Numbered from the stretch's first letter, positions 4,659 through 63,990 are shown. The stretch is DNA of 64,000 nucleotides from an uncultured Actinomycetes bacterium (GCA_963841735.1 CAWJDT010000001.1:1280001-1344000), one strand, 5' to 3'. A program made the numbers and translations. Notes: generated by a model not told the origin, from the sequence alone.

Positions 4659-5768
4659 AGCCGCGCACGGGATGGTCGCCCGGAGCCTCGTGCCCCGCCC
4701 AAGGTGGGAGTCGAGGTGCATCGTGCCCCCGACGGAGAGTATCCTTTGTTCCATGCCGATGATGCCTAGGCTGCCTTGCGCCACGTAGAGGACCAATCTC
4801 TCGGGCAGATGGAACCCGATGCCGTCGTCCTGCACCTCCAGCGTCAGTCGGTCGTCCTCGAAGTTCAAGAGGACGTCGCCGTGCTTGGCCTGCGAGTGCC
4901 GCTGGATGTTGTGAAGGGCCTCCTGTACGACGCGGAAGATCGTTACCTCCACTAGGCTTGACATCTTCCGCTCCTCGCCCACCACCCGAGTGTCGATGCA
5001 GCAACTGCCTTGAGTGTTGCTATGGTTGACCAACCAGCGGATGCCCGAGACAAGCCCAAAATTGTCCAGGATGCTTGGCCTCAAGTTCATGCTCAGTCTC
5101 CTGAGGTCGTCCATGCTCTGAAGGACCTTCTGCTTGACCCAGAGGTTGCCCGCGCTCTGCTCGTCATCGGTGCACGATGACGCTAGAGAATCGCACTTGC
5201 TGGCGATGACCATGAGCGTCTGAAGGGTTTCGTCATGGATCTCCAGAGCGATCCGCCGTCGCTCCGCCTCCTGAGTCTCGACCAGTTTGGCGACGAACGC
5301 CTGGCCCTCTCGCTGGCGCTCGGCAAAGTTCCGCTTCTCGCCCTCGCGCCAGCGTCTCTCTCCTTGCGCGACCGCCACCACCAATACCGGTAACAACAGC
5401 AGCATCAGGTTGTTGAACTCCCACCTGCCTCCCCACGCCATGTGCATGGGAAGCAGCCAGATGAGTGATAGCAGCCAGGCAAAAAGTCCTCCCGGCCACC
5501 CCAATGTGAGCGATCCATAGATGATCGGGACGAAGAACAGTACGCCAAGCACATGGAATCTGAGCTCCACATCCACAACGATGAAGTCCATGTTCGCCAG
5601 CCAGGGGAAGAAACTCCAGAATCCTTGGGTGAACTGCCAGTGCCTCCAGGGCCACGCCTCGTAAATCACCAAGAGTAGCGCCGACAGCACCAGCACAACC
5701 CAGAAGTGAGGGTTCGTCAAAATCCTGTGGGCGGTAGACCTAAGTTTGGCAGAACGAGTTTCGGTCAT
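4626..5768 (-). CDS. Membrane sensor histidine kinase (HisKA_3)
   Basis: N-terminal TM helices; ERRRIALEIHDETLQ H-box; VQEALHNIQRHS; QDDGIGF. Confidence 0.95.
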   Translation of the reverse strand: MTETRSAKLRSTAHRILTNPHFWVVLVLSALLLVIYEAWPWRHWQFTQGFWSFFPWLANMDFIVVDVELRFHVLGVLFFVPIIYGSLTLGWPGGLFAWLLSLIWLLPMHMAWGGRWEFNNLMLLLLPVLVVAVAQGERRWREGEKRNFAERQREGQAFVAKLVETQEAERRRIALEIHDETLQTLMVIASKCDSLASSCTDDEQSAGNLWVKQKVLQSMDDLRRLSMNLRPSILDNFGLVSGIRWLVNHSNTQGSCCIDTRVVGEERKMSSLVEVTIFRVVQEALHNIQRHSQAKHGDVLLNFEDDRLTLEVQDDGIGFHLPERLVLYVAQGSLGIIGMEQRILSVGGTMHLDSHLGRGTRLRATIPCAASDYVVQGKNA

Positions 5769-6255
5769 GGTGGGCCGATTGTCTCAGTACCAACTACTTT
5801 CTGCCACCGTTCCAATCTCGCTTCGCTCACTTGGTGGGAGGGTTTCACCAAAGTTGCCCAACCAAAGTAATTGAATGCCCCCAGTGGCTCAGGTACACAG
5901 TACGAACACAACGTCGATAGCGACAGCGTCACATCGCATCGTTGAACGAGCCATTCAGAAGGAGCTGCTTGTTGGTGAAGTACAAGTTTGCCTACCGCGC
6001 GGACAACGTTTCCCTCGATTTAGTGGGCAATTGCTTCGCCGATTGTGATCTCCAGTTGGTCCATGGGGCTATCGCCGGTATGAAGGGAATCCTGGATACC
6101 GGAGACAGACGTTGTCCGGAAGGCGGATCGGACCGCGCGAAGCAGCTGGTTTACGAGATGAAGACGAAGGAGGTAGAGAGACTAAGGAGTCGTGGGGAGG
6201 AATCGTACGCATACGTGCGGGATGAAAAGGCCAAGCTACAGGAGGGAGTTGCATA

Positions 6256-9483: not shown

Positions 9484-10713
9484 ATGGAAGGCAACATAGT
9501 GACGCCGCAGAGGTATCTGGGCAAGAAGGGTCTCATCATCTTCCTGGCAGCGCTCAGTTCCTTTACGGTGCTGTCTACCGACCTCTATCTGCCCGCTCTC
9601 CCCGGGATGACCGCCTACTTTGGTGTCCCGGAGTATCAGACCAACCTGACCCTCATTCTCTTCTTTGTGTTCTACGCCGTCGCTCTCCTAGTGTGGGGGC
9701 CACTCAGCGATCGTTTTGGGCGCAGGCCGGTCCTTCTTGTGGGTCTCATCTGTTACGCGGCCGCAGGCGCCCTTTGCGCGTTGTCGTCCAGCATCTTCCA
9801 GCTGATGGTCTTTCGTGTCTTTCAGGCGATCGGGGCCGGGGCAGCGGGTACTGTGGCGACCGCCATCGTCAAGGACTCATATAGGGGCAGGAGGCGTGAG
9901 GTCACCCTGGGCGTCATCCAGTCGATCACCGTTCTGACTCCGCTGGTGGCGCCGATAGTTGGAGGGCTCATACTGAGGTTCACTTCGTGGCGGGGCGTGT
10001 TCGTGGTACAGGGGATCTTGGGCCTTGCGGTGCTGGCCGGCGCGATCCTGTACCAGGAGACCGTAGGCGAGAGACTTACGGGCAATCCCCTGGCTTCGCT
10101 CTTGCGTCTGGGCACCGTTCTCAAGAGCGGGAGCTTCGCCCTTCTCCTTGTCAACTTCTCGTTGCTCGGCATGGCCAGCATGGCCTTTATCTCGTCGTCT
10201 TCCTACATCTACGAAGTCACCTTCGGCACCAGCAGCCAGGTATACAGTTACTTCTTCGCCCTGTTTGGCGCAGGTATCGCGTTGGGCCCGCCGATCTTCC
10301 TTTGCCTTTCGCGCCGGTTTGAGCGCACGGCCATCCTCAGCGGGTGCTTCGTGGCATGCGCGGCGAGCGGCCTACTCGTCATCCTGGTCGGCCGCCTGGG
10401 GCCGTGGCCCTTCATCGCCACATTCTTCCCCAGTGCCATCGCTTTCAGCTGTATGCGCGCTCCCGCCGCTTATCTGATGCTCGCTCAGCGCGAAGGAGAC
10501 GCGGGCTCGGCGTCCGGGCTCATCATCGCCTCGAACATGGTGATGGGCAGCCTAGGTACCGTCGTTGTCTCGCTTGGATTGTGGGGCCGGGTGGAGCTGG
10601 TTGGCACCCTCGTGCTCGGCCTGGCGGTGCTGAGCTTGGGCTTGTGGCTGAGCCGAGGGCTGCCGCGCATACGTGCCCAGGCGTCCTCGGAGACGGCAAA
10701 GCCCCTATACTAG
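9484..10713 (+). CDS. Bcr/CflA-family MFS efflux transporter
   Basis: STDLYLPALP, GPLSDRFGRRPVL, about 12 TM segments. Confidence 0.92.
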   Translation: MEGNIVTPQRYLGKKGLIIFLAALSSFTVLSTDLYLPALPGMTAYFGVPEYQTNLTLILFFVFYAVALLVWGPLSDRFGRRPVLLVGLICYAAAGALCALSSSIFQLMVFRVFQAIGAGAAGTVATAIVKDSYRGRRREVTLGVIQSITVLTPLVAPIVGGLILRFTSWRGVFVVQGILGLAVLAGAILYQETVGERLTGNPLASLLRLGTVLKSGSFALLLVNFSLLGMASMAFISSSSYIYEVTFGTSSQVYSYFFALFGAGIALGPPIFLCLSRRFERTAILSGCFVACAASGLLVILVGRLGPWPFIATFFPSAIAFSCMRAPAAYLMLAQREGDAGSASGLIIASNMVMGSLGTVVVSLGLWGRVELVGTLVLGLAVLSLGLWLSRGLPRIRAQASSETAKPLY

Positions 10714-10802
10714 ATGGGAGCACTGCGAGGCAGTTCAAGCTCGAGCGCGAAAATGTGGTGCCCACGTCCAAGGGGGCAGGCGCGCCGACGCAGGAGGTCA
10801 CC

Positions 10803-11321
10803 GTGAGTCACGGACATGGGGCGGACGGGTTTATGGGGCATAGGCTTGGACCGGGAGTGCGGCCCTTCGAGAGGGGCGGCATCAAGTTCGCCATCATGGA
10901 GCTTCTCAAAGACAAGCCGCGGCATGGCTATGACATCATCCGGGCGATGCATGACCACTCCCGGGGTTTGTATAGCCCCAGCGCAGGATCGATTTACCCC
11001 GTCCTGCAGGTGCTCGAGGACCGAGACCTAGTGACTTCAGGAGACGAAGGAGGCAAGCGGGTCTATTCGCTCACGCAGGCCGGTCTCGCCTTCCTGGAGG
11101 AGAACAAGCAGGAGGCCGAGAGACATCGGGATCGCTGGGTGGCGCACTTGGGCCCCGGTGGGCGTGCTGAGGGCTTGAGTGCGATGAGTGACCTGCAGCA
11201 GGCCTTCGAGGACATGACGAGAGCGGTTCACGCGACCGCGGTGGACGCCGCCAAGCGGAAAGAGATCCGCGAGGTGCTGGAATCTGTTGCCAAGAAGCTT
11301 GGGGACATAGCCAAGCGCTAG
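10803..11321 (+). CDS. PadR-family transcriptional regulator
   Basis: GTG after AGGAGG; PRHGYDII, YSPSAGSIYPVL, GKRVYSLT. Confidence 0.92.
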   Translation: MSHGHGADGFMGHRLGPGVRPFERGGIKFAIMELLKDKPRHGYDIIRAMHDHSRGLYSPSAGSIYPVLQVLEDRDLVTSGDEGGKRVYSLTQAGLAFLEENKQEAERHRDRWVAHLGPGGRAEGLSAMSDLQQAFEDMTRAVHATAVDAAKRKEIREVLESVAKKLGDIAKR

Positions 11322-11406: not shown

Positions 11407-12408
11407 ATGAGACTCAGACGCGCCACGGTCGCCCTTGCGGTGCTTGTCGCCGGTGTTTCGCTTGGGCTCGCTGTCTCTTCCGGCACCGTCCACGCCGTGG
11501 ATACCGGGCAGGGGGACGGTGGCGAACTGAAGCCCAACGAGATGGGCCAGGTTCTTGTTCTTATGTACCATCTGATAGGCTCCACCGGCGGCGTGTATAA
11601 CCGCAGTCCCGAGCGGTTCAGGCAAGATCTGGTCGATCTGAAAGCGGCGGGCTACTATCCCGTGAACCTACACGACTTGGTCTCCGGTCGGAACGACGTG
11701 CCCGCGGGGAAATCCCCGGTAGTCATCACGTTCGACGATTCCAGTGAGGGTCAGTATCGTATCTTGCGAGACGGCACGCTTGATCCTAACTGCGCCGTCG
11801 GCATCATGAAGGCGGCAGCGCAAGCCGGGGGATGGGCCGAGCGGGCTTCCTTCTTTGTTCTGCTTCAGGTCTATCCCACCGGCCACCTGCTCTTCGGGCA
11901 GGCGGAGTATAGGGAGTCGAAGCTGCGCGACCTGGTCTCCTGGGGATACGAGGTGGGAAGTCACACCGTCACTCATCTCGATCTCGGGAGTGCTTCGCGC
12001 AGGCAGGCAACCAAGGAGCTTGCCGAATCCAGGAGTATGCTCAAGCAGCTGATAGGCGGTGGCTACCAGGTCACGAGCCTGGCGGTACCCTACGGAGCTT
12101 TTCCGCACGATGTCAGCTTGTTGCAGCGGTGGAGCTTCTTGGGTGATCCGTACGCCTACTCAGCCGTTCTGAGGGCGGGCGGCGGTCCATCCCCTTCCCC
12201 CTTTTCGGACAAGTTCGATCACCTCCACATCAATCGGATAGCTGTGGCGGGCAATGAGCTGGGTGGCACGATCACGTACTTTCAACAGCACCCTGAACTC
12301 CGCTACGTGTCTGACGGCGATCCCGGCACCATCTGCGCACCCCTTGAACTTGCGCCTTCCCTGGGGACGCTAAGGCCACAGCCGGGCCGAACGGTCGTGC
12401 GCTACTAG
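11407..12408 (+). CDS. Secreted polysaccharide deacetylase (NodB-like)
   Basis: Signal peptide; VLMYH, ITFDD, GSHTVTH, AVPYG motifs. Confidence 0.9.
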   Translation: MRLRRATVALAVLVAGVSLGLAVSSGTVHAVDTGQGDGGELKPNEMGQVLVLMYHLIGSTGGVYNRSPERFRQDLVDLKAAGYYPVNLHDLVSGRNDVPAGKSPVVITFDDSSEGQYRILRDGTLDPNCAVGIMKAAAQAGGWAERASFFVLLQVYPTGHLLFGQAEYRESKLRDLVSWGYEVGSHTVTHLDLGSASRRQATKELAESRSMLKQLIGGGYQVTSLAVPYGAFPHDVSLLQRWSFLGDPYAYSAVLRAGGGPSPSPFSDKFDHLHINRIAVAGNELGGTITYFQQHPELRYVSDGDPGTICAPLELAPSLGTLRPQPGRTVVRY

Positions 12409-57130: not shown

Positions 57131-58495
57131 CTAAACGGGGAGAGAGACGGTGAAACGGGCGCCCTCTCCGGGCCGGCTTTCCAGGGTGAGGGAACACTCA
57201 TGGGCTTCCACGATGGCCTGGGCGATGGCGAGGCCAAGACCTGCTCCGCCGTCCTTCCTGCCGGCTCCTCGATAGAAACGCTCGAAGACGTGCTTGACCA
57301 CGGCGTCACTCATCCCCTCGCCCTCGTCTCTCACCCACAGCTCAACGCCACTCGGCGTGCGTTTGCCTCCCAGGGCGATGACCTGTCCAGGTTGAGTGTG
57401 CTGAACGGCGTTCTGGACGAGATTGAGGAATACCTGGGTGAGGCGATCTTGATCAGCCTGCACCGAGCCACCCGGAAGAGAGTCAAGCAGCCACTCGCGC
57501 TCGCCGAGATGGGGGCCCTGCGAGAGCAACGACTGAAGGAAGGCGTCCAGGCCAATGCTTTCTTTGCGCAGAAAATCGACTCGGGTCGCCCGCGCCAAGG
57601 TGAGCAGGTCGGCCACTAAGCGGTTCATCCTGTCTAACTCGTCGAGCACCAAGGCATGTTCCTGCTTAACGAAGGCAGGGTCCGGTGATTCTTGCCGGTC
57701 GAGCACCTGCAGATGGCCCTTGATGATGGTAAGCGGCGTCCGCAACTCATGGGACGCGTCGGAGATGAACTGCTCTTGAGCGCTGAAGGCCGATTGGAGC
57801 CGGTCAAACATGGCGTCCATGGTGTGCGCCAGTTCCCCGATCTCGTCGGCGGGTCCCGAGTACCCGATCCTGCGGGATAGGTCCTCGTGGGAAATGGCGG
57901 CGGCGGTCCTCGTGATCCGGCGTACCGGGCCCAGGGCTCTTCCCACCAGCAGCCACGAGCCCAGTCCCACCACGAGGCAGCCGAGCGCGCCGCCGACGGC
58001 CAGTAGCATGAGCAAGTTACGCAACGTGTCGGTGATATTGGCGAGCGAGCCGGCGATCTCAACCGCGCCCACTTGTTCTCCTGCCAGAACTATCGGTGTG
58101 CCGGCCACCCGCAGGGATCGTCCGCCCACCGACACATCGAGCAGGTAAGAATCGCCTGACTCGAGGAGAAGGAGCGTGGCCTGCAGGTCTTCCAGGCGGA
58201 TGTCGTTGGAATTGGAGACGACTGTTCCATCCATGGTCTGCAGGGAGAAGACATAGGCGCTTTGGCGTAGCGAGTTCGATTGCGGTCCCGAAAGGTAGCT
58301 CTCGGTGACCGCGGCCAGAGTCTGTTCGTCTGCCGCCGAGCCTACCACCTGCTGATAGTGGTTCAGCTGCTGAATGAGCTTCGAGTCGAGTTCACCGCGT
58401 AGCTGCTGGCCCATGATGGCGTACATCCCGACAGCTCCGGCGACCGTGATCAGGATCACGCCGAACACGAACCACAGGGTCAGACGTAGTCTCAA
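57131..58495 (-). CDS. HAMP sensor histidine kinase
   Basis: Two TMs, HAMP, DASHELRTPL, NLVQNA, VRDEGEG, GAGLGLAI; TTG start overlaps the regulator stop. Confidence 0.95.
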   Translation of the reverse strand: MRLRLTLWFVFGVILITVAGAVGMYAIMGQQLRGELDSKLIQQLNHYQQVVGSAADEQTLAAVTESYLSGPQSNSLRQSAYVFSLQTMDGTVVSNSNDIRLEDLQATLLLLESGDSYLLDVSVGGRSLRVAGTPIVLAGEQVGAVEIAGSLANITDTLRNLLMLLAVGGALGCLVVGLGSWLLVGRALGPVRRITRTAAAISHEDLSRRIGYSGPADEIGELAHTMDAMFDRLQSAFSAQEQFISDASHELRTPLTIIKGHLQVLDRQESPDPAFVKQEHALVLDELDRMNRLVADLLTLARATRVDFLRKESIGLDAFLQSLLSQGPHLGEREWLLDSLPGGSVQADQDRLTQVFLNLVQNAVQHTQPGQVIALGGKRTPSGVELWVRDEGEGMSDAVVKHVFERFYRGAGRKDGGAGLGLAIAQAIVEAHECSLTLESRPGEGARFTVSLPV

Positions 58496-59181
58496 GCCTC
58501 TGGCGCTTCTGGCGAGCGGAACCGGTAGCCTCCCCCTCGCACGGTCTCGATCATGGACTCTCCGTGGGGCTCGTCGATCTTGCCGCGGAGATAGCCTACG
58601 TAGACGTCGACCACATTGGTCTGTGGGTCGAAGTCGTACCCCCATACCCCGCCCAGAAGCTGCGACCGAGTAAGAACCTGCCCCTGGTGGCGGAGGAAGA
58701 ACTCAAGCAGTGCGAACTCTCGGGAGGTCAGATCGAAGGCACGATCACCCCGGAGGGCTCTGCGCGCCTTCAGGTCGAGGGTCAGATCGCCGGCCTGAAG
58801 CACCGACCCGTGCTCTTGGCGATCGTGCCGCAGCTGCGCCCGGATGCGGGCGACCAACTCGTCGAAGTCAAAGGGCTTGGGGAGATAGTCGTCGGCTCCG
58901 AGGTCTAGGCCCTTGACTCGCGAGGGCACGTCACCGCGCGCGGTGAGCATGATGATGGGGGTGACTTGATCGGTCTTGCGGACCTCCGCCAGTACCTGGA
59001 ACCCGTCCATATCGGGCAGGCCTACGTCAAGCAGGATGAGATCCCAGCGTTGGCCCTGTCGCAGCCGGTCGAGCGCCTCTGCTCCCATCCCGACAACATC
59101 GGTGAGGTACCCGGCGCCCTCGAGGCCCTTGGCGATGAAGGAAGCCACCCGGTTTTCGTCCTCGACTAGTAGCAGTCGCAC
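58492..59181 (-). CDS. OmpR-family response regulator
   Basis: LLLVEDE, LLDVGLPDMDG, GADDYLPKPF, NVVDVYVGYLRGKID, ETVRGGGY. Confidence 0.95.
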   Translation of the reverse strand: MRLLLVEDENRVASFIAKGLEGAGYLTDVVGMGAEALDRLRQGQRWDLILLDVGLPDMDGFQVLAEVRKTDQVTPIIMLTARGDVPSRVKGLDLGADDYLPKPFDFDELVARIRAQLRHDRQEHGSVLQAGDLTLDLKARRALRGDRAFDLTSREFALLEFFLRHQGQVLTRSQLLGGVWGYDFDPQTNVVDVYVGYLRGKIDEPHGESMIETVRGGGYRFRSPEAPEA

Positions 59182-59188
59182 GGCCGGA

Positions 59189-59503
59189 TCACCTGCCCGA
59201 GCCGGTGGAGGGGGGGCCTCCCTGATAACCGTGCCCCGGCTGGACTCGGATGTCACCCGAGATGACCGTTGTGTTGCCGGCCCGCATCGTCGACCCCGTC
59301 GAGCCGCCCTGGCCTAGGGTCGTGCCGGTTCCCTGCCCCTGGTCGGCAGGTGCGCTTCCAATTTGGATGGTCGGCAATGAAGAGGCCGAGTTATCGGAGT
59401 CGCCGAGGTCGAACGCCACCATGGCGATGATGATGACCACCACGACAAGGCCTGTTCCAACGAGGGGTACGGCCAAGCGGCGAAGCAAAGTCAAGGATCT
59501 CAC
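59189..59503 (-). CDS. Small single-TM protein preceding the two-component genes
   Basis: One hydrophobic helix and a Gly/Thr tail; stop 7 nt before the regulator start. Confidence 0.6.
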   Translation of the reverse strand: MRSLTLLRRLAVPLVGTGLVVVVIIIAMVAFDLGDSDNSASSLPTIQIGSAPADQGQGTGTTLGQGGSTGSTMRAGNTTVISGDIRVQPGHGYQGGPPSTGSGR

Positions 59504-59562
59504 CAACCTTCCGGGGGAGTACCTGGAGGCAATGTTAGCAGAGGCATTTGGATCGACAGGAT

Positions 59563-59617
59563 TCTAAGAGGATTCTCATCCCTGTCTAACGCGGACCTCA
59601 TGCTGCCTACCTACACT
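59563..59617 (+). promoter_or_regulatory. OmpR-type promoter: four hexamers at 11-bp period plus -10
   Basis: TCTAAG, TCTCAT, TCTAAC, CCTCAT, 10 nt, TACACT. Confidence 0.75.
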
Positions 59618-59694
59618 TGGCTCGAAGCCCCGGGAGGAGCGGCAATCGCATTTCCAGGAAGGGGCAAGACCCATAAACAAGGCAAGCGAGGTAC

Positions 59695-60319
59695 GTGATG
59701 ATGGATACCACTTCTCTTGAGCGTCGCCGCCGACCAAGCGCGAGGCTTGTAACGCGCTGGGCCACGGCCATCCTGCTATGTGTGTCGGGGCTGGTCACGG
59801 CCCTCACCGGCATCTACTTCCTGTTTCTGCCCAACGGCGGCTACCAGGGGGGGCGCAACGCAGCCTACGCGACAACGCTGCTCTTCAGTAGAGGCACCTG
59901 GAGAGACCTTCACACCTGGACGGGCGTCACGATGCTGGCGCTGGCCGTTCCTGCATCTAGTGCTTCATCGCAAGTGGTTGGCCCAAATGGTGCGGCGCTC
60001 AGGGGCGGTTCTCACCGGACGTCGGAAACCTTGCCTGACGAGGGTCTGGCCTAGGGATATCGTGATTTGGAGTGTTACAGCCTCCTTTCTCGTGCTCACC
60101 GCTTCGTCGCTCTACTTCCTGTTTGCAGGGGGCGCTCACTCAGGCGGTGGCCTCGGCGGCTCCTCGCTCCTATTTGGCGGCTCCACATGGCATCTTCTGC
60201 ACACATGGGGAGCCATCGCCTTCATGGTCGCCATCGGCTCTCACCTGGCTTTGAGCTGGAAGCGGCTGGCGCGGGCGACACCCATAGTCTTTGGCGCCTC
60301 GTCTGCCAGAACGTCCTAG
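59695..60319 (+). CDS. Tandem DUF4405 membrane protein (putative heme b), frameshifted near 59950
   Basis: WRDLHTW...LHLVLHRKW and WHLLHTW...SHLALSW. Confidence 0.78.
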
Positions 60320-60409
60320 CAGAACGGCACAAAGGTGAGAACCGCACAATAGTGGGTATGCTTCTATTGTTCGGCAGCAACCAAGGCTTCAGAACGGAAG
60401 GGAACCGAG

Positions 60410-61580
60410 ATGAAACGTGCGGTCGTTCTGGGTGGAGGGATCGGCGGTGTCGAGGCCGCCATTGAGCTGAAGAAGAGGGGCTTGGAGGTCGAGCTGGTCT
60501 CCGACAGGGATTACCTCTTCGTCTATCCCCTCGCCATCTGGATCCCAACAGGGGAGCGGTCTGTCGATCGGGTGAGTATCGGACTCACCGATATCGCCAG
60601 GGCGCATGGGTTCAGCGTGACCATCGATGAGGTCGTCGGGGTGAGTGCCCGCGGACGTAGTTTCACCCTCAAGACCCGCGGCGAGCGCCAAGACTTCGAC
60701 TACCTGGTGCTGGCTCTCGGCGGAGCCAAGATGCCCCACAAGGGCAAGGAGCACACGCTCTCGATTTGCGGTGCGCCTGAGGAGAGCGTCCGGCTGCTCG
60801 AGCGACTCGACGCACTCATCGCTGTGGGCGGCGGCACGATCGCGGTCGGCTTCGGGGGCAATCCGAAGGACAGCAGCGCAGTGCGGGGCGGCCCGGGGTT
60901 CGAGTTTCTGTTCAACGTGCACCATCGGCTCGAAGAAGCTGGGAGTTCGCAGAGGCTTCGACCTCGTGTTCTTTGCGCCCATGCCTCAGCCCGGCATCCG
61001 CATGGGGGAGAAAGCGGTGCGCGCAATGGACCGCATGCTCGCATCCCTTGGCATCCGTTCCTATACAGGCAAGAAGATCAGTGAGTTCGTCGAAGGCGCA
61101 GTCATTCTCGAGGACGGGACCAGGCTCGACGCGGATCTCATCATGTTCATCCCCGCGGGAGATGGCCACGGTGTTATGAAGTCTTCAGACCTGCCGCTGA
61201 GCGACGCCGGTTTTGTCTTGATAGACCGGGCCTGCGAGGTGAAGGGGTATCCGTGGCTCTACGCCATCGGCGATATGGCCGCCTTGGAGGGGCCGGAGTG
61301 GAAGGCCAAGCAGGGCCATGTGGCCGAAGTGATGGCTCGGACTGCCGCGCGGGATATCGCCCAGAAGGAGGCCGGCCGCGAGCGGAGCGGGAGCTACGTC
61401 GATGAACTCTGCATCATCTGCGTTATGGACATGGGCAACGGCGCCGGATTCGTCTATCGGAACGAGAAGCGGGCGCTGTTTGTGCCGCTGCCCATCGTGG
61501 GGCATTGGCTGAAGAAGAGTTGGGGCACGTATTACCGGCTGCGCAAGCTAGGGAAAATGCCTCGTATCCCCGGCATGTGA
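60410..61580 (+). CDS. sqr: Sulfide:quinone oxidoreductase, type VI/SqrF-like, frameshifted near 60932
   Basis: GGGIGG, SICG, GGNPKDSSAVRGGPGFEFLF, YAIGD, KQGHVAE, CVMDMG. Confidence 0.82.
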
Positions 61581-61585
61581 AGTCG

Positions 61586-61971
61586 CTAGCAGCAGGCCCC
61601 GGCCTGACTGTCTGCGCCTTCGGTGGTGCTCTTGTTGTCCTTGAGCGCGCAGCCAATCGTCGCAGTCGCCGCCGCAGATCACTCTTCTCTTCGGCCGTCA
61701 CCGCCCGGGATAGCGCATCGACGATGGCCGCCTGCGCCCCAGACAAGCGGGATGAGACGCGGTAGTACATCCATAGCCCCTCTCGGCGGTCTTCCACCAG
61801 CCCAGCATGGTAGAGATAGCGCAAATGGCGAGAGGCTTTCGATTGGGTCAATCCCAGAGCCCCGACAAAATCGCAGACACAGAGCTCCTCTCGTTCGAGG
61901 AGTAGCGTCATTATCTGCAACCTTGTTTCGTCGGAGAGCGCTTTGAAGGTGTCGGCCAAGTGGTTCATCAT
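61586..61971 (-). CDS. arsR: ArsR/SmtB regulator with CVC and reconstructed C-terminal CC (two apparent indels near 61650)
   Basis: FKALSDETRL, ELCVCD, QSKASRHL, REGLWMYY; alternative frame ends QAGACC*. Confidence 0.85.
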
Positions 61972-62396
61972 GACACGCCTTCCGCGGGACTGGGCGTCTC
62001 GAGGATCTCGTCGACTGTCGACGCTATCGCGTCGGCTACCAGGCGCACAGCCTCGTCGTCCGCCGGACCGCGTGACCGCGACGACCGTTGACAGCCGGCA
62101 GCGCTCGTCCCAAGGATATCCCGCACGACCAGAGCGCGCGCCACCGGTCCGCCGTGCTTCTCGGTGCCCCATCTCGCGCATTGCTTGTCGCATCCGTCGA
62201 TGGTGATGGTGGGATGAGTGCGGGCGAAGTTACGTTCGCCCTCATTGCCCGCCAGGAACAGGGGTAGGCAGAGAGTGACTGTCTCGTGAGGTCTTAGGGA
62301 TTCCAGCACCCGGCGGACGGCATTGCGGGAAATGGTGCCCTCGGCTATTTCCTCACCGCTGCAGGAGATGATGCCCACCTTGGTGGTCTTGTTCAT
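61968..62396 (-). CDS. DGC-domain putative zinc-binding protein
   Basis: ISCSG, LCLP, TIDGCDKQCA. Confidence 0.85.
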   Translation of the reverse strand: MNKTTKVGIISCSGEEIAEGTISRNAVRRVLESLRPHETVTLCLPLFLAGNEGERNFARTHPTITIDGCDKQCARWGTEKHGGPVARALVVRDILGTSAAGCQRSSRSRGPADDEAVRLVADAIASTVDEILETPSPAEGVS

Positions 62397-62408
62397 TTCG
62401 TGCGGTCA

Positions 62409-62835
62409 TCACGCCACCTCTTCGCCGGCGCGGAGTCGAGCGGCCTCGTCGGCCACCGCTTCGGCGATCTCTCGACTGATAGTCCAGCCTTCCTCGGTGA
62501 GTTCTGTCCCGCTACCTGGCTGGACGCCCCGGCGAGCTGCTTAGGAATCGAGCGACCTGAAAGGCTTTTGCCACCTGGCCGCCCGCGATCTCGACGTTCT
62601 TCTGCGCGCAGGCCTTGCCACAACCGTCGATGGTTACGCAGGGGTGCGTCCGCACCTTGGCCAAAGTCTCTCCATCTTCTCTCACCAGCAGTGCCAAGCA
62701 GACCACGTCGGTTTCGGCCGGCGCAAGCTCGTCGGTGGCCAGATAGGCGGATTCCCGGCTGAGAAGCCCGTGGACTTTGCCGATGCCGCTGCACGGGATC
62801 ACCAGCACCTTGTCCGAGACTTCATTCATGTCCAT
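62409..62835 (-). CDS. DGC-domain protein, frameshifted near 62535
   Basis: IPCSGIG, VCLA, TIDGCGKACA; continues PGSGTELTEEGW...EEVA* in another frame. Confidence 0.82.
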
Positions 62836-62841
62836 GTGTCC

Positions 62842-63703
62842 TTAGTATTCGGCGGCTTTGTGCTCGACGTCGGCAGCGTATGCCGGACCGTCGACCAGTA
62901 GTTCGCGGTCCTCTTCCCAGGCGGTAAGCTGCAATTCGACGATCCAACTGCCATACGGGTCCTCATTGATCCATTCCGGGGCGTCGTCTACTGCCTGGTT
63001 GATGCGCACCACCGTACCGCTCACGGGCGACACCAGCTCGAAGGCGGCCTTGGCCGACTCGATGGTGCCCACCTCGCCGAACTGCTCGATGCTCGCGCCG
63101 ATCTCGGGCGGGTCCACGTAGGTGATATCAGTGAGCCGTTGCTGCAGGTAGTCGGAGATGCCTACCCGGGCCCTGGCTGCCGGCCACCCGCACCCAGACG
63201 TCGTTCGCGTTGAAGAAGTATCCGGTCAAGGGGATGCGGAACTCGTACTTGTCGTGGACCACCACCGCAAAATCCGAGGGCGTTTCGAACTCTGCCTCCG
63301 GCGGTGCTTCCCTCGCGTTCTCCGTGGTCGCGGGCACGCCGGTCTCGGACGCTTTGATGCCGTCGACTATGGTCCGGGCAAGCTCGAGAGCGTCAGTACC
63401 AAGGCGGAGCCCAGGTTCCAGCGCGCGGCCGGACTTCTTGACGGCGTCGGTCACCAGCACCTTTTGCGCCGGTTTGGCCTGGGCGGCCACGGCCAGCCTG
63501 GTGGCGCACTGGGTTGCGCATCCATCGACCACGATAAGCCGTTTCTCGGTGAGCGCCTTCTTGTAGCGCGCGGGAGTGCGGTTGAGCACCACCGGGCAGA
63601 TGATCTGCGCCCCCGTTTCTTCTGCCAGTATGATGGCCACTTCGCGGGCCACCGAACCCTCGGGCTTGTCGAGACCCGTGCAGGAGAGGACTGCGTAGCT
63701 CAT
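62842..63703 (-). CDS. DGC domain fused to a glycine-cleavage-H-like lipoyl domain, frameshifted near 63170
   Basis: SCTG, ICP, VDGCATQCA; then YFFNANDVWVRV / ARVGISDY, IESAKAA, SPVSG, INEDPYGSW. Confidence 0.82.
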
Positions 63704-63990
63704 TGCCCACCATCCTCGGTGAGCGACTCGTCGGCCGCGGTTCGCAGCTGCTTGATGATAGCCACGGTCTCGGGCTTATCGGGAAACGAAAGCGCGTCGG
63801 GGCCGCAGGTCTTGGAGCACGCCCGGCAGAAGACCACACAATTGTGGGGATTGGCTACTACAAGCTTGGTGTCGCCCTCTCGGCGTTCGAAGACCCGGTG
63901 CGGGCAGAACTCGTCGCACTCCATGCAGAAATCGCACTTGTCGTAGTCGATGGTGGGCGCCCACGGGATCCTGCTGCGCGGCACCCCCAT
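63700..63990 (-). CDS. 2x[4Fe-4S] ferredoxin (may begin beyond the window)
   Basis: IPWAPTIDYDKCDFCMECDEFCP; NPHNCVVFCRACSKTC. Confidence 0.9.
   Translation of the reverse strand: MGVPRSRIPWAPTIDYDKCDFCMECDEFCPHRVFERREGDTKLVVANPHNCVVFCRACSKTCGPDALSFPDKPETVAIIKQLRTAADESLTEDGGQ

Follow-up and report, generated by a model that had tools for sequence, protein, structure and literature searches.

To our knowledge, lipoate has few roles, which comprise the 2-oxoacid dehydrogenases, glycine cleavage and its relatives, and sHdr sulfur oxidation. Lipoic acid is also the classic target of arsenic, and textbooks treat lipoate as the victim of arsenite. The described system closest to the one reported here is sHdr-LbpA, in which, according to the accessible part of one report, a GcvH-like lipoate-binding protein has a non-canonical role, an Hdr-derived Fe-S protein is encoded in the same cluster and an LplA-like ligase is often linked to it (PMC6067878). 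We analysed a stretch of 64,000 nucleotides (the window; contig C1:1280001-1344000) from an uncultured Actinomycetes bacterium with a genome assembly of 2.82 Mb that is 89.7% complete. Across the end of the window, on the minus strand, runs a cassette whose core of ~2.5 kb encodes, from 5' to 3', a stand-alone homolog of the HdrA N-terminal domain (mini-HdrA), a ferredoxin, a fusion of a DGC domain with a GcvH-like lipoyl domain (DGC1:lipoyl) and two further DGC proteins (DGC2 and DGC3). By position and predicted operator the cassette is a member of an ArsR regulon, and it is best read as a lipoyl/Fe-S thiol-redox module, controlled by ArsR, with which anaerobes would handle arsenic.

In design the cassette is most like sHdr-LbpA, yet it falls outside both sHdr-LbpA and the glycine-cleavage system. 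As far as the accessible text goes, LbpA has two conserved cysteines besides its lipoyl lysine (PMC6067878), which the lipoyl domain of the cassette lacks; the latter is also fused to DGC and linked to arsenic rather than sulfur genes. The cassette has only a 125-145 aa homolog of the HdrA N-terminal domain, and an HdrA flavoprotein/HdrB/HdrC cluster was not found among its recurring neighbours. An LplA-like ligase, often cluster-linked in sHdr-LbpA, lies beside the cassette in 14 of the 50 non-redundant loci described below, with none at this locus. With the thiol-accessory ars operons (ArsR-Acr3-ArsC-ArsM, ArsD/ArsA, ArsE thioredoxin) the cassette shares ArsR control and the neighbours Acr3 and ArsM. 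The operon arsR5-arsP-arsE-DGC of Pseudodesulfovibrio mercurii ND132 contains one DGC gene (PF08859) with no assigned function; it differs in having only one such gene, and neither 'lipo' nor 'glycine cleavage' occurs in the accessible text of its description (10.1101/2022.10.17.512643). Literature searches, with most subscription papers and supplements outside their scope, returned no description of the five-gene cassette. The set is apparently undescribed; its newness lies in its architecture and in its fit to neither known system, with a function that is putative. The layout of the locus is as follows, with genes upstream of the window in C1 coordinates.

C1:1346629-1346650, palindrome before acr3, from a genome pattern scan
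C1:1345506-1346576, minus strand, acr3 (TIGR00832, 453.9 bits, cut-off 282.8)
C1:1344658-1345506, minus strand, arsM (NF008823, 354.6 bits, cut-off 263)
C1:1344505-1344526, palindrome before mini-HdrA, from a genome pattern scan
C1:1344001-1344435, minus strand, mini-HdrA, first core gene, 144 aa
63700..64000, minus strand, 2x[4Fe-4S] ferredoxin (CxxCxxCxxxC ... CxxxCxxCxxxC), its ATG 8 bases past the window end
62842..63703, minus strand, DGC1:GcvH-like lipoyl fusion, 286 aa when an extra base near 63175 is skipped
62409..62835, minus strand, DGC2, ~140 aa, its last third shifted by a 1-nt insertion near 62540
61968..62396, minus strand, DGC3, 142 aa
61586-61971, minus strand, ArsR with an ELCVCDF motif (NF033788, 97.3 bits, cut-off 55; HTH_5, 55.9 bits)

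An earlier reading of the window from its sequence alone (the sequence-only reading) had placed an operon of ferredoxin, DGC-H-protein fusion, two more DGC proteins and ArsR at 61968..63990. All of these open reading frames (ORFs) are present on the minus strand. The span needed revision, as ArsR lies outside it and the operon starts past the window edge (64000), with mini-HdrA, arsM and acr3 located upstream. The mini-HdrA stop codon overlaps the ferredoxin start, and a 220-bp gap separates arsM from mini-HdrA. All three DGC ORFs score above the PF08859 cut-off of 27 (66.6 bits for DGC1, 49.2 and 60.2 bits for the other two) and have the four cysteines and the DGC motif.

The fusion, which that reading had taken to be real, proved so. 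The N-terminus of the H protein, YFFNANDVWVRV, is carried in the DGC1 frame starting at 63703, and the remaining GCV_H domain (97 bits), with its ESAKA lipoyl motif, sits in the next frame; skipping one base near 63175 yields a protein of the commonest length among intact homologs. Of the best 120 of 576 homologs, 119 are intact DGC+GCV_H fusions (281-308 aa, 59-82% identity), the sole exception being the truncated ORF of the window itself. DNA alignment revealed a 1-nt insertion near 63180 in the window relative to 11 of 14 relatives, and further insertions near 62540 (DGC2 tail), 62400 (DGC3 start) and 61655 (ArsR tail). Correcting the last of these restores the C-terminal CC of ArsR found in its closest homologs. 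The frame breaks are likelier to be assembly errors than gene decay because frame changes also affect 6 of 20 genes taken from other parts of the assembly.

The structural model of the fusion (pLDDT 86.7) has two domains joined by a disordered linker (pLDDT <50). The linker is Ala/Glu-rich, measures 16-44 residues over the measured stretch and is 34% Ala; a variable Ala-rich linker of this kind is what a swinging arm would be expected to have. The H domain superimposes on GcvH structures (1dxm, Z 22.2, root-mean-square deviation (rmsd) 1.1, 130 aligned residues) and thus has the H-protein fold together with the lipoyl lysine. That residue, Lys-218, is a predicted lipoylation site; along with Ser-216 and Glu-215, three residues before the lysine, it is invariant in both alignments (49/49 and 37/37 fusions). 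No conserved cysteine column was found in the H domain, which is free of cysteine in 43/49 and 28/37 sequences of the two alignments. The conserved residues of DGC1 are Cys-8, Cys-36, Cys-62, Cys-66 and Arg-20. This genome encodes a LipB-like transferase, LipA and Lpd, and a lipoate ligase or transferase was found in 20/20 cassette genomes.

The fusion shares with GcvH (PF01597, TIGR00527) the fold, the lipoyl lysine and the Glu and Gly that flank it. It differs in its two-domain build, in a score below the equivalog cut-off (TIGR00527 103.3 vs 115.85), in the lack of linkage to gcvP/gcvT and in a genome that is often without GcvP. A reading as a normal H protein of glycine cleavage, accompanied by passenger genes, would account for the H-protein fold and for the two distant fusions, among four others, that pass the looser GcvH subfamily cut-off NF002270 (none of the four passes TIGR00527). 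Against it, GcvP was not found in this 89.7% complete genome by family search, nor in 10 of the 20 cassette genomes, the other ten having it; gcvP and gcvT are not among the recurring cassette neighbours. Family searches bear out the sequence-only reading that the window holds no gcvP, gcvT or lpd, the nearest Lpd lying 84 kb and a GcvT-like gene 1.1 Mb away, and the genes found upstream are mini-HdrA, arsM and acr3. A canonical stand-alone gcvH is also present on contig C4 (L007 10147-10530), beside FHA-domain and MerR-like genes identified by inspection, where it probably serves as the hub of a lipoyl relay. We therefore consider the chance that the fusion is an ordinary H protein negligible.

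The three DGC paralogs each keep four cysteines and an arginine 12 residues past the first of them (C-x11-R), the second cysteine being missing in 4 of 37 DGC1 sequences. In a phylogenetic tree the paralogs group by gene position across phyla (5 changes vs 28.5 shuffled) and most solo DGCs separate from the three cassette paralogs; DGC2 does not form one resolved clade. The DGC2 model (pLDDT 93.9) adopts a four-stranded three-layer fold for which the top Foldseek rows are ArsC structures, though weak ones (E 0.013, TM-score 0.34-0.41), and comparison with 2l17 gave Z 6.5 with an rmsd of 3.1 over 101 residues. In both DGC and ArsC (LMW-PTP fold, thioredoxin-coupled), strand 1 ends in a cysteine and helix 1 contains an invariant arginine. 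The active-site loop of LMW-PTP-type ArsC is C-x5-R, as is visible in the ArsC of locus L094; this loop is not found in DGC, where all three paralogs have C-x11-R, and the profile comparison of DGC with ArsC reached no more than 1%. Homology between DGC and MvhD found no support: hhalign gave at most 2.1% with a shallow 30-sequence MvhD alignment, the fold searches pointed to no more than a widespread three-layer fold, MvhD was not among the listed fold matches and there was no PDB sequence hit. An Atlas search for proteins that resemble DGC2 but lie outside PF08859 returned no usable hit. Separately, DGC3 has a conserved extra C-terminal domain of ~90 aa in L008, L013, L037, L049, L055, L056, L064, L081 and L094, and a similar sequence forms a separate ORF, with no Pfam hit, in L019 (8814-9047). 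Locus L100 (9990-10800) holds two more DGC genes on the opposite strand, which group with DGC1 and DGC3.

Mini-HdrA has four cysteines (Cys-26, Cys-28, Cys-63 and Cys-86) that are invariant in 48 homologs and point to [4Fe-4S] binding. Its profile matches the HdrA N-terminal domain both in solved structures (E 1.5e-6) and in genomic HdrA (hhalign 98.6%). The accessible part of a study of methanogen Hdr describes the HdrA N-terminal domain and a C-terminal ferredoxin region as parts of a mobile arm (PMC13580544). Mini-HdrA is homologous to the former, and the cassette ferredoxin is weakly similar to the latter (E 7e-5). The cassette differs from methanogen HdrA in that mini-HdrA is free-standing and has no bifurcating flavin.

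To place the cassette among its kin, we examined 100 loci, which besides the present one comprise 16 from GTDB genomes, 76 from metagenomes and 7 from 400 evenly drawn Actinomycetota genomes. All six parts are held by 55 of them, leaving 50 once near-copies were removed; the other 45 miss at least one part, mostly at contig ends, and L107 lacks the ferredoxin and DGC2 internally. Loci L024-L036 matched the H part only and were excluded from all counts. Core gene order is identical in 50/50 non-redundant complete loci from several phyla, the named hosts including Actinomycetota, a Christensenellaceae bacterium, Bacteroidetes and an uncultured archaeon. In the even draw, seven genomes had a stand-alone mini-HdrA and all seven had the full core. 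Strict ars genes were taken to be acr3, arsM, arsC, arsD, arsA and arsP, with markers spot-checked against NCBIfam. With the hits in L013 (a PanS/BASS-like transporter) and L100 (a fragment of 52 residues at an edge) discounted along with further short ones, such a gene lies beside the cassette in 26 of the 35 loci with at least 3 kb upstream. Four of the seven even-draw loci have one, one has ArsR only and two are cut by contig ends. An ArsR-family gene is present in 32 of the 35 well-flanked loci, and 40 of 49 neighbouring ArsR-family proteins carry a CxC motif. Over the 50 loci, acr3 occurs in 20, arsP in 5 and ArsD in 3. Other recurring neighbours are genes for ArsE-type small thioredoxins, metallophosphoesterase, DUF169, DsbD-like and AhpD-like proteins.

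The same survey bears on the SQR-like gene, which is convergent with ArsR at an end-to-end spacing of 5 bp and to which the sequence-only reading had linked the cassette, citing LbpA-like sulfur carriers. A sulfur relay serving this gene, as LbpA does in sHdr sulfur oxidation, would make use of that proximity and of the set of Hdr-derived domain, lipoyl protein and ligase that recalls sHdr-LbpA. SQR, though, adjoins the cassette in only 2/50 loci, this one and one close relative, a count for which the query was mainly the SQR-like protein's N-terminal half. The lipoyl domain lacks LbpA's two cysteines and has no conserved cysteine of its own, no sHdr catalytic subunits are among the recurring neighbours, and no copy of the palindrome described below precedes SQR. 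The sulfur relay was rejected as largely refuted by linkage, cysteine and palindrome evidence, and is highly improbable.

The cluster is an ars operon in composition: ArsR carries an As(III)-type cysteine motif, and acr3 and arsM exceed their curated cut-offs. Its terminal CC is a motif with a role in ArsR. In the R773 protein, according to the accessible text of one report, ArsR binds arsenic via C32/C34 (10.1101/2022.10.17.512643). A 22-bp palindrome, TAYAACCG-N6-CGGTTRTA, is common to the upstream regions. A scan of the whole 2.82-Mb genome at up to 2 mismatches returned two sites, one 53 bp upstream of acr3 (0 mismatches) and one 70 bp upstream of mini-HdrA (1 mismatch), the latter overlapping a TATAAT; in three shuffled controls the counts were 0, 2 and 1, every site having 2 mismatches. 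Across the survey the palindrome occurs 38 times in 28/100 loci, most often before acr3 (8), mini-HdrA (8) and arsR (6). Whole-genome scans of five relatives found 8 sites at no more than 1 mismatch, and 0 for the reversed pattern. Each of the 8 falls at an acr3, arsM, arsR or cassette locus; a second acr3, on a different contig, is among these loci. Thus, at the level of sequence, ars genes and cassette share an operator, to which ArsR would bind. A promoter scan identified only one promoter-like site on this strand, that of acr3, near chance level.

A broader thiol/metal-stress module (disulfide or Fe-S repair; Zn, Cd, Hg, Sb), often recruited into ArsR regulons, would explain the well-flanked loci without a strict ars gene, the 9/49 neighbouring ArsR-family proteins without CxC, and neighbours such as AhpD/CMD, OsmC, DsbD-like and thioredoxin genes. 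The confinement of the palindrome to ars and cassette loci in this genome and four relatives argues against it, as do three loci in which a fusion of ArsM with a thioredoxin-like domain abuts mini-HdrA; we judge such a module quite improbable. In these loci both domains of the fusion (ArsM and MTH895/ArsE) exceed NCBIfam cut-offs and its stop codon abuts the mini-HdrA start (L049 5894-6985, L077 5894-6985, L078 3215-4306).

An arsenic role of some kind is probable for the cassette. Three features make arsenic the most likely metalloid: the position of arsM and acr3 just upstream, the ELCVCD and CC motifs of ArsR, and the presence of one palindrome ahead of both acr3 and the cassette. The sequence-only reading had proposed a lipoate-based thiol relay or metalloid-capture system convergent with SQR; a lipoate-based relay or metalloid-handling system survives as the best reading, with arsenic as its likely metalloid, and the SQR and sulfur part falls away. 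In its specific form, an arsenic-induced lipoate-based thiol/electron relay of anaerobes, it is a tentative proposal, with chances we put slightly short of even. ArsR would repress the cassette and acr3-arsM via one shared palindrome, and the H domain would be lipoylated on Lys-218 by the cell's LipB/LipA or a cassette-linked LplA. Swinging on its flexible linker from a DGC1 anchor, the dihydrolipoyl arm would depend on an Fe-S chain of ferredoxin and mini-HdrA, or on the lipoamide dehydrogenase of housekeeping metabolism, to stay reduced, and would hand reducing equivalents to the four-cysteine DGC sites. These sites may then act as reductants either of pentavalent arsenic species or of oxidised thiols in ArsM, ArsC and ArsE-type thioredoxins, which would keep arsenic in the trivalent form that Acr3 exports and ArsM methylates. 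The architecture, residues, gene order, linkage and palindrome are observed features; lipoylation, cofactors, complex formation, substrate and the direction of electron flow are presumed in this scheme. Known chemistry speaks in its favour: in the accessible part of a review, trivalent monomethyl arsenic (MMA(III)) attaches to pyruvate dehydrogenase at its lipoyl thiols, and dihydrolipoate is reported to take part in arsenate reduction (PMC12608789).

Capture and hand-over of arsenic is another way to read the same evidence, since the ars linkage and the operator are equally compatible with it. Here a dihydrolipoyl decoy would bind As(III) or methylated trivalent arsenic (MAs(III)) and shield the housekeeping lipoyl enzymes, the metalloid would pass via DGC cysteines to Acr3 or ArsM in the manner of the ArsD chaperone, and the Fe-S proteins would only keep the arm reduced. 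The binding of MMA(III) to pyruvate dehydrogenase lipoyl thiols in the review cited above (PMC12608789) and the four conserved cysteines in each DGC domain speak for this explanation. A sponge would hardly need so much machinery, with two Fe-S proteins dedicated to it and three DGC paralogs each specific to its position, and ArsD stands next to the cassette in only 3/50 loci. The relay is favoured over a pure chelator because two Fe-S-type proteins, needless for a chelator, head the operon, and capture appears rather unlikely.

The relay might also go further. The five proteins could together form an arsenate or methylarsenate reductase (or demethylase) of a new class, which we regard as doubtful. 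The invariant Cys and Arg residues of DGC would bind the oxyanion, and the swinging dihydrolipoyl arm would be the reductant, fed by ferredoxin via the free-standing HdrA domain; the complex would stand in for ArsC in anaerobic lineages with acr3 and without detectable LMW-PTP-type arsC. ArsC of neither the LMW-PTP-type nor the glutaredoxin-type family was found in this genome, the only one searched for the glutaredoxin type. An acr3 match is present in 16/20 cassette genomes, and acr3 occurs without detectable LMW-PTP-type arsC in this genome and 8/20 cassette genomes, in a lineage that is ArsC-poor. A PF01451 (LMW-PTP/ArsC-family) match was found in 10/20 cassette genomes vs 30/38 controls, a comparison confounded by lineage that gives a mixed picture of mutual exclusion between cassette and ArsC.

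Alternatively, the lipoyl arm would take a methyl or methylarsenic group, as part of an enzyme that demethylates or reduces methylarsenicals anaerobically. Glycine cleavage offers a parallel, its H protein being a carrier of methylamine; the architecture is that of a swinging-arm carrier and the cassette is linked to arsM (20/50) and arsP (5/50); an MtrA-like corrinoid methyltransferase subunit also abuts mini-HdrA in one locus. Conserved methyl-acceptor, folate and corrinoid genes were not found among the recurring neighbours, the MtrA case being a single locus, and we hold this enzyme to be very unlikely. The MtrA-like gene, a tetrahydromethanopterin methyltransferase subunit (NF002126, above cut-off), lies between acr3 and mini-HdrA at L085 6369-7043.

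Several points weigh against the arsenic relay. Most loci are kin, and the counts overstate their independence. Nine of the 35 well-flanked loci have no strict ars gene, and arsenic may not be the sole trigger. ArsM accompanies the cassette in only 20/50 loci and in 1/7 even-draw genomes; it was rejected as an obligatory client on the former count. Co-occurrence with Lpd is uninformative (17/20 cassette genomes above cut-off vs 32/38 controls). An ArsC-family gene is found in 10/20 cassette genomes and beside the cassette in 5/50 loci, which shows that the cassette is no simple ArsC replacement. The palindrome was drawn partly from this genome's sites and the relatives' loci, with genome-wide exclusivity as the real check, and a wide fold search for DGC, with a best Z of 8.7, gave no clear solved relative, which leaves Zn, Fe-S and free thiols as candidates for its cofactor.

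Were lipoate to act in arsenic defence, this would be a new job for it, reversing its standing as a victim, and the DGC domain and the free-standing HdrA domain would each gain a first function. The question bears on which reductant drives arsenic reduction and methylation in sediment and soil anaerobes, where arsenic speciation determines groundwater and crop exposure. The cassette is small (~2.5 kb), soluble and preceded by a defined operator sequence, and thus directly testable.

Further features were observed around the cassette. The gap between arsM and the cassette contains a metallophosphoesterase remnant (L001 8540-8704; 51% identity over 55 residues); the gene is intact between arsM and mini-HdrA in many relatives, and the family occurs in 16/50 loci, the remnant counted. 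Upstream of acr3, at L001 about 10700-10860, is a short stretch resembling a decayed IS3-family integrase core. Outside the cassette, window positions 57131-61580 encode a two-component pair, a double DUF4405 membrane protein and the SQR-like flavoprotein, the latter two also frameshifted in the assembly. In L145 two extra stand-alone GcvH-like genes (5283-5858 and 11423-11803) flank the cassette and its LplA. HdrA-like, MvhD-like and TusA-like ORFs, named by inspection, lie ~4 kb upstream of the cassette in the single locus L011 (638-2556). A radical SAM/SPASM protein, tungsten-cofactor maturase-like (below cut-off), recurs near acr3 on the opposite strand in L008, L009, L012, L021 and L044.

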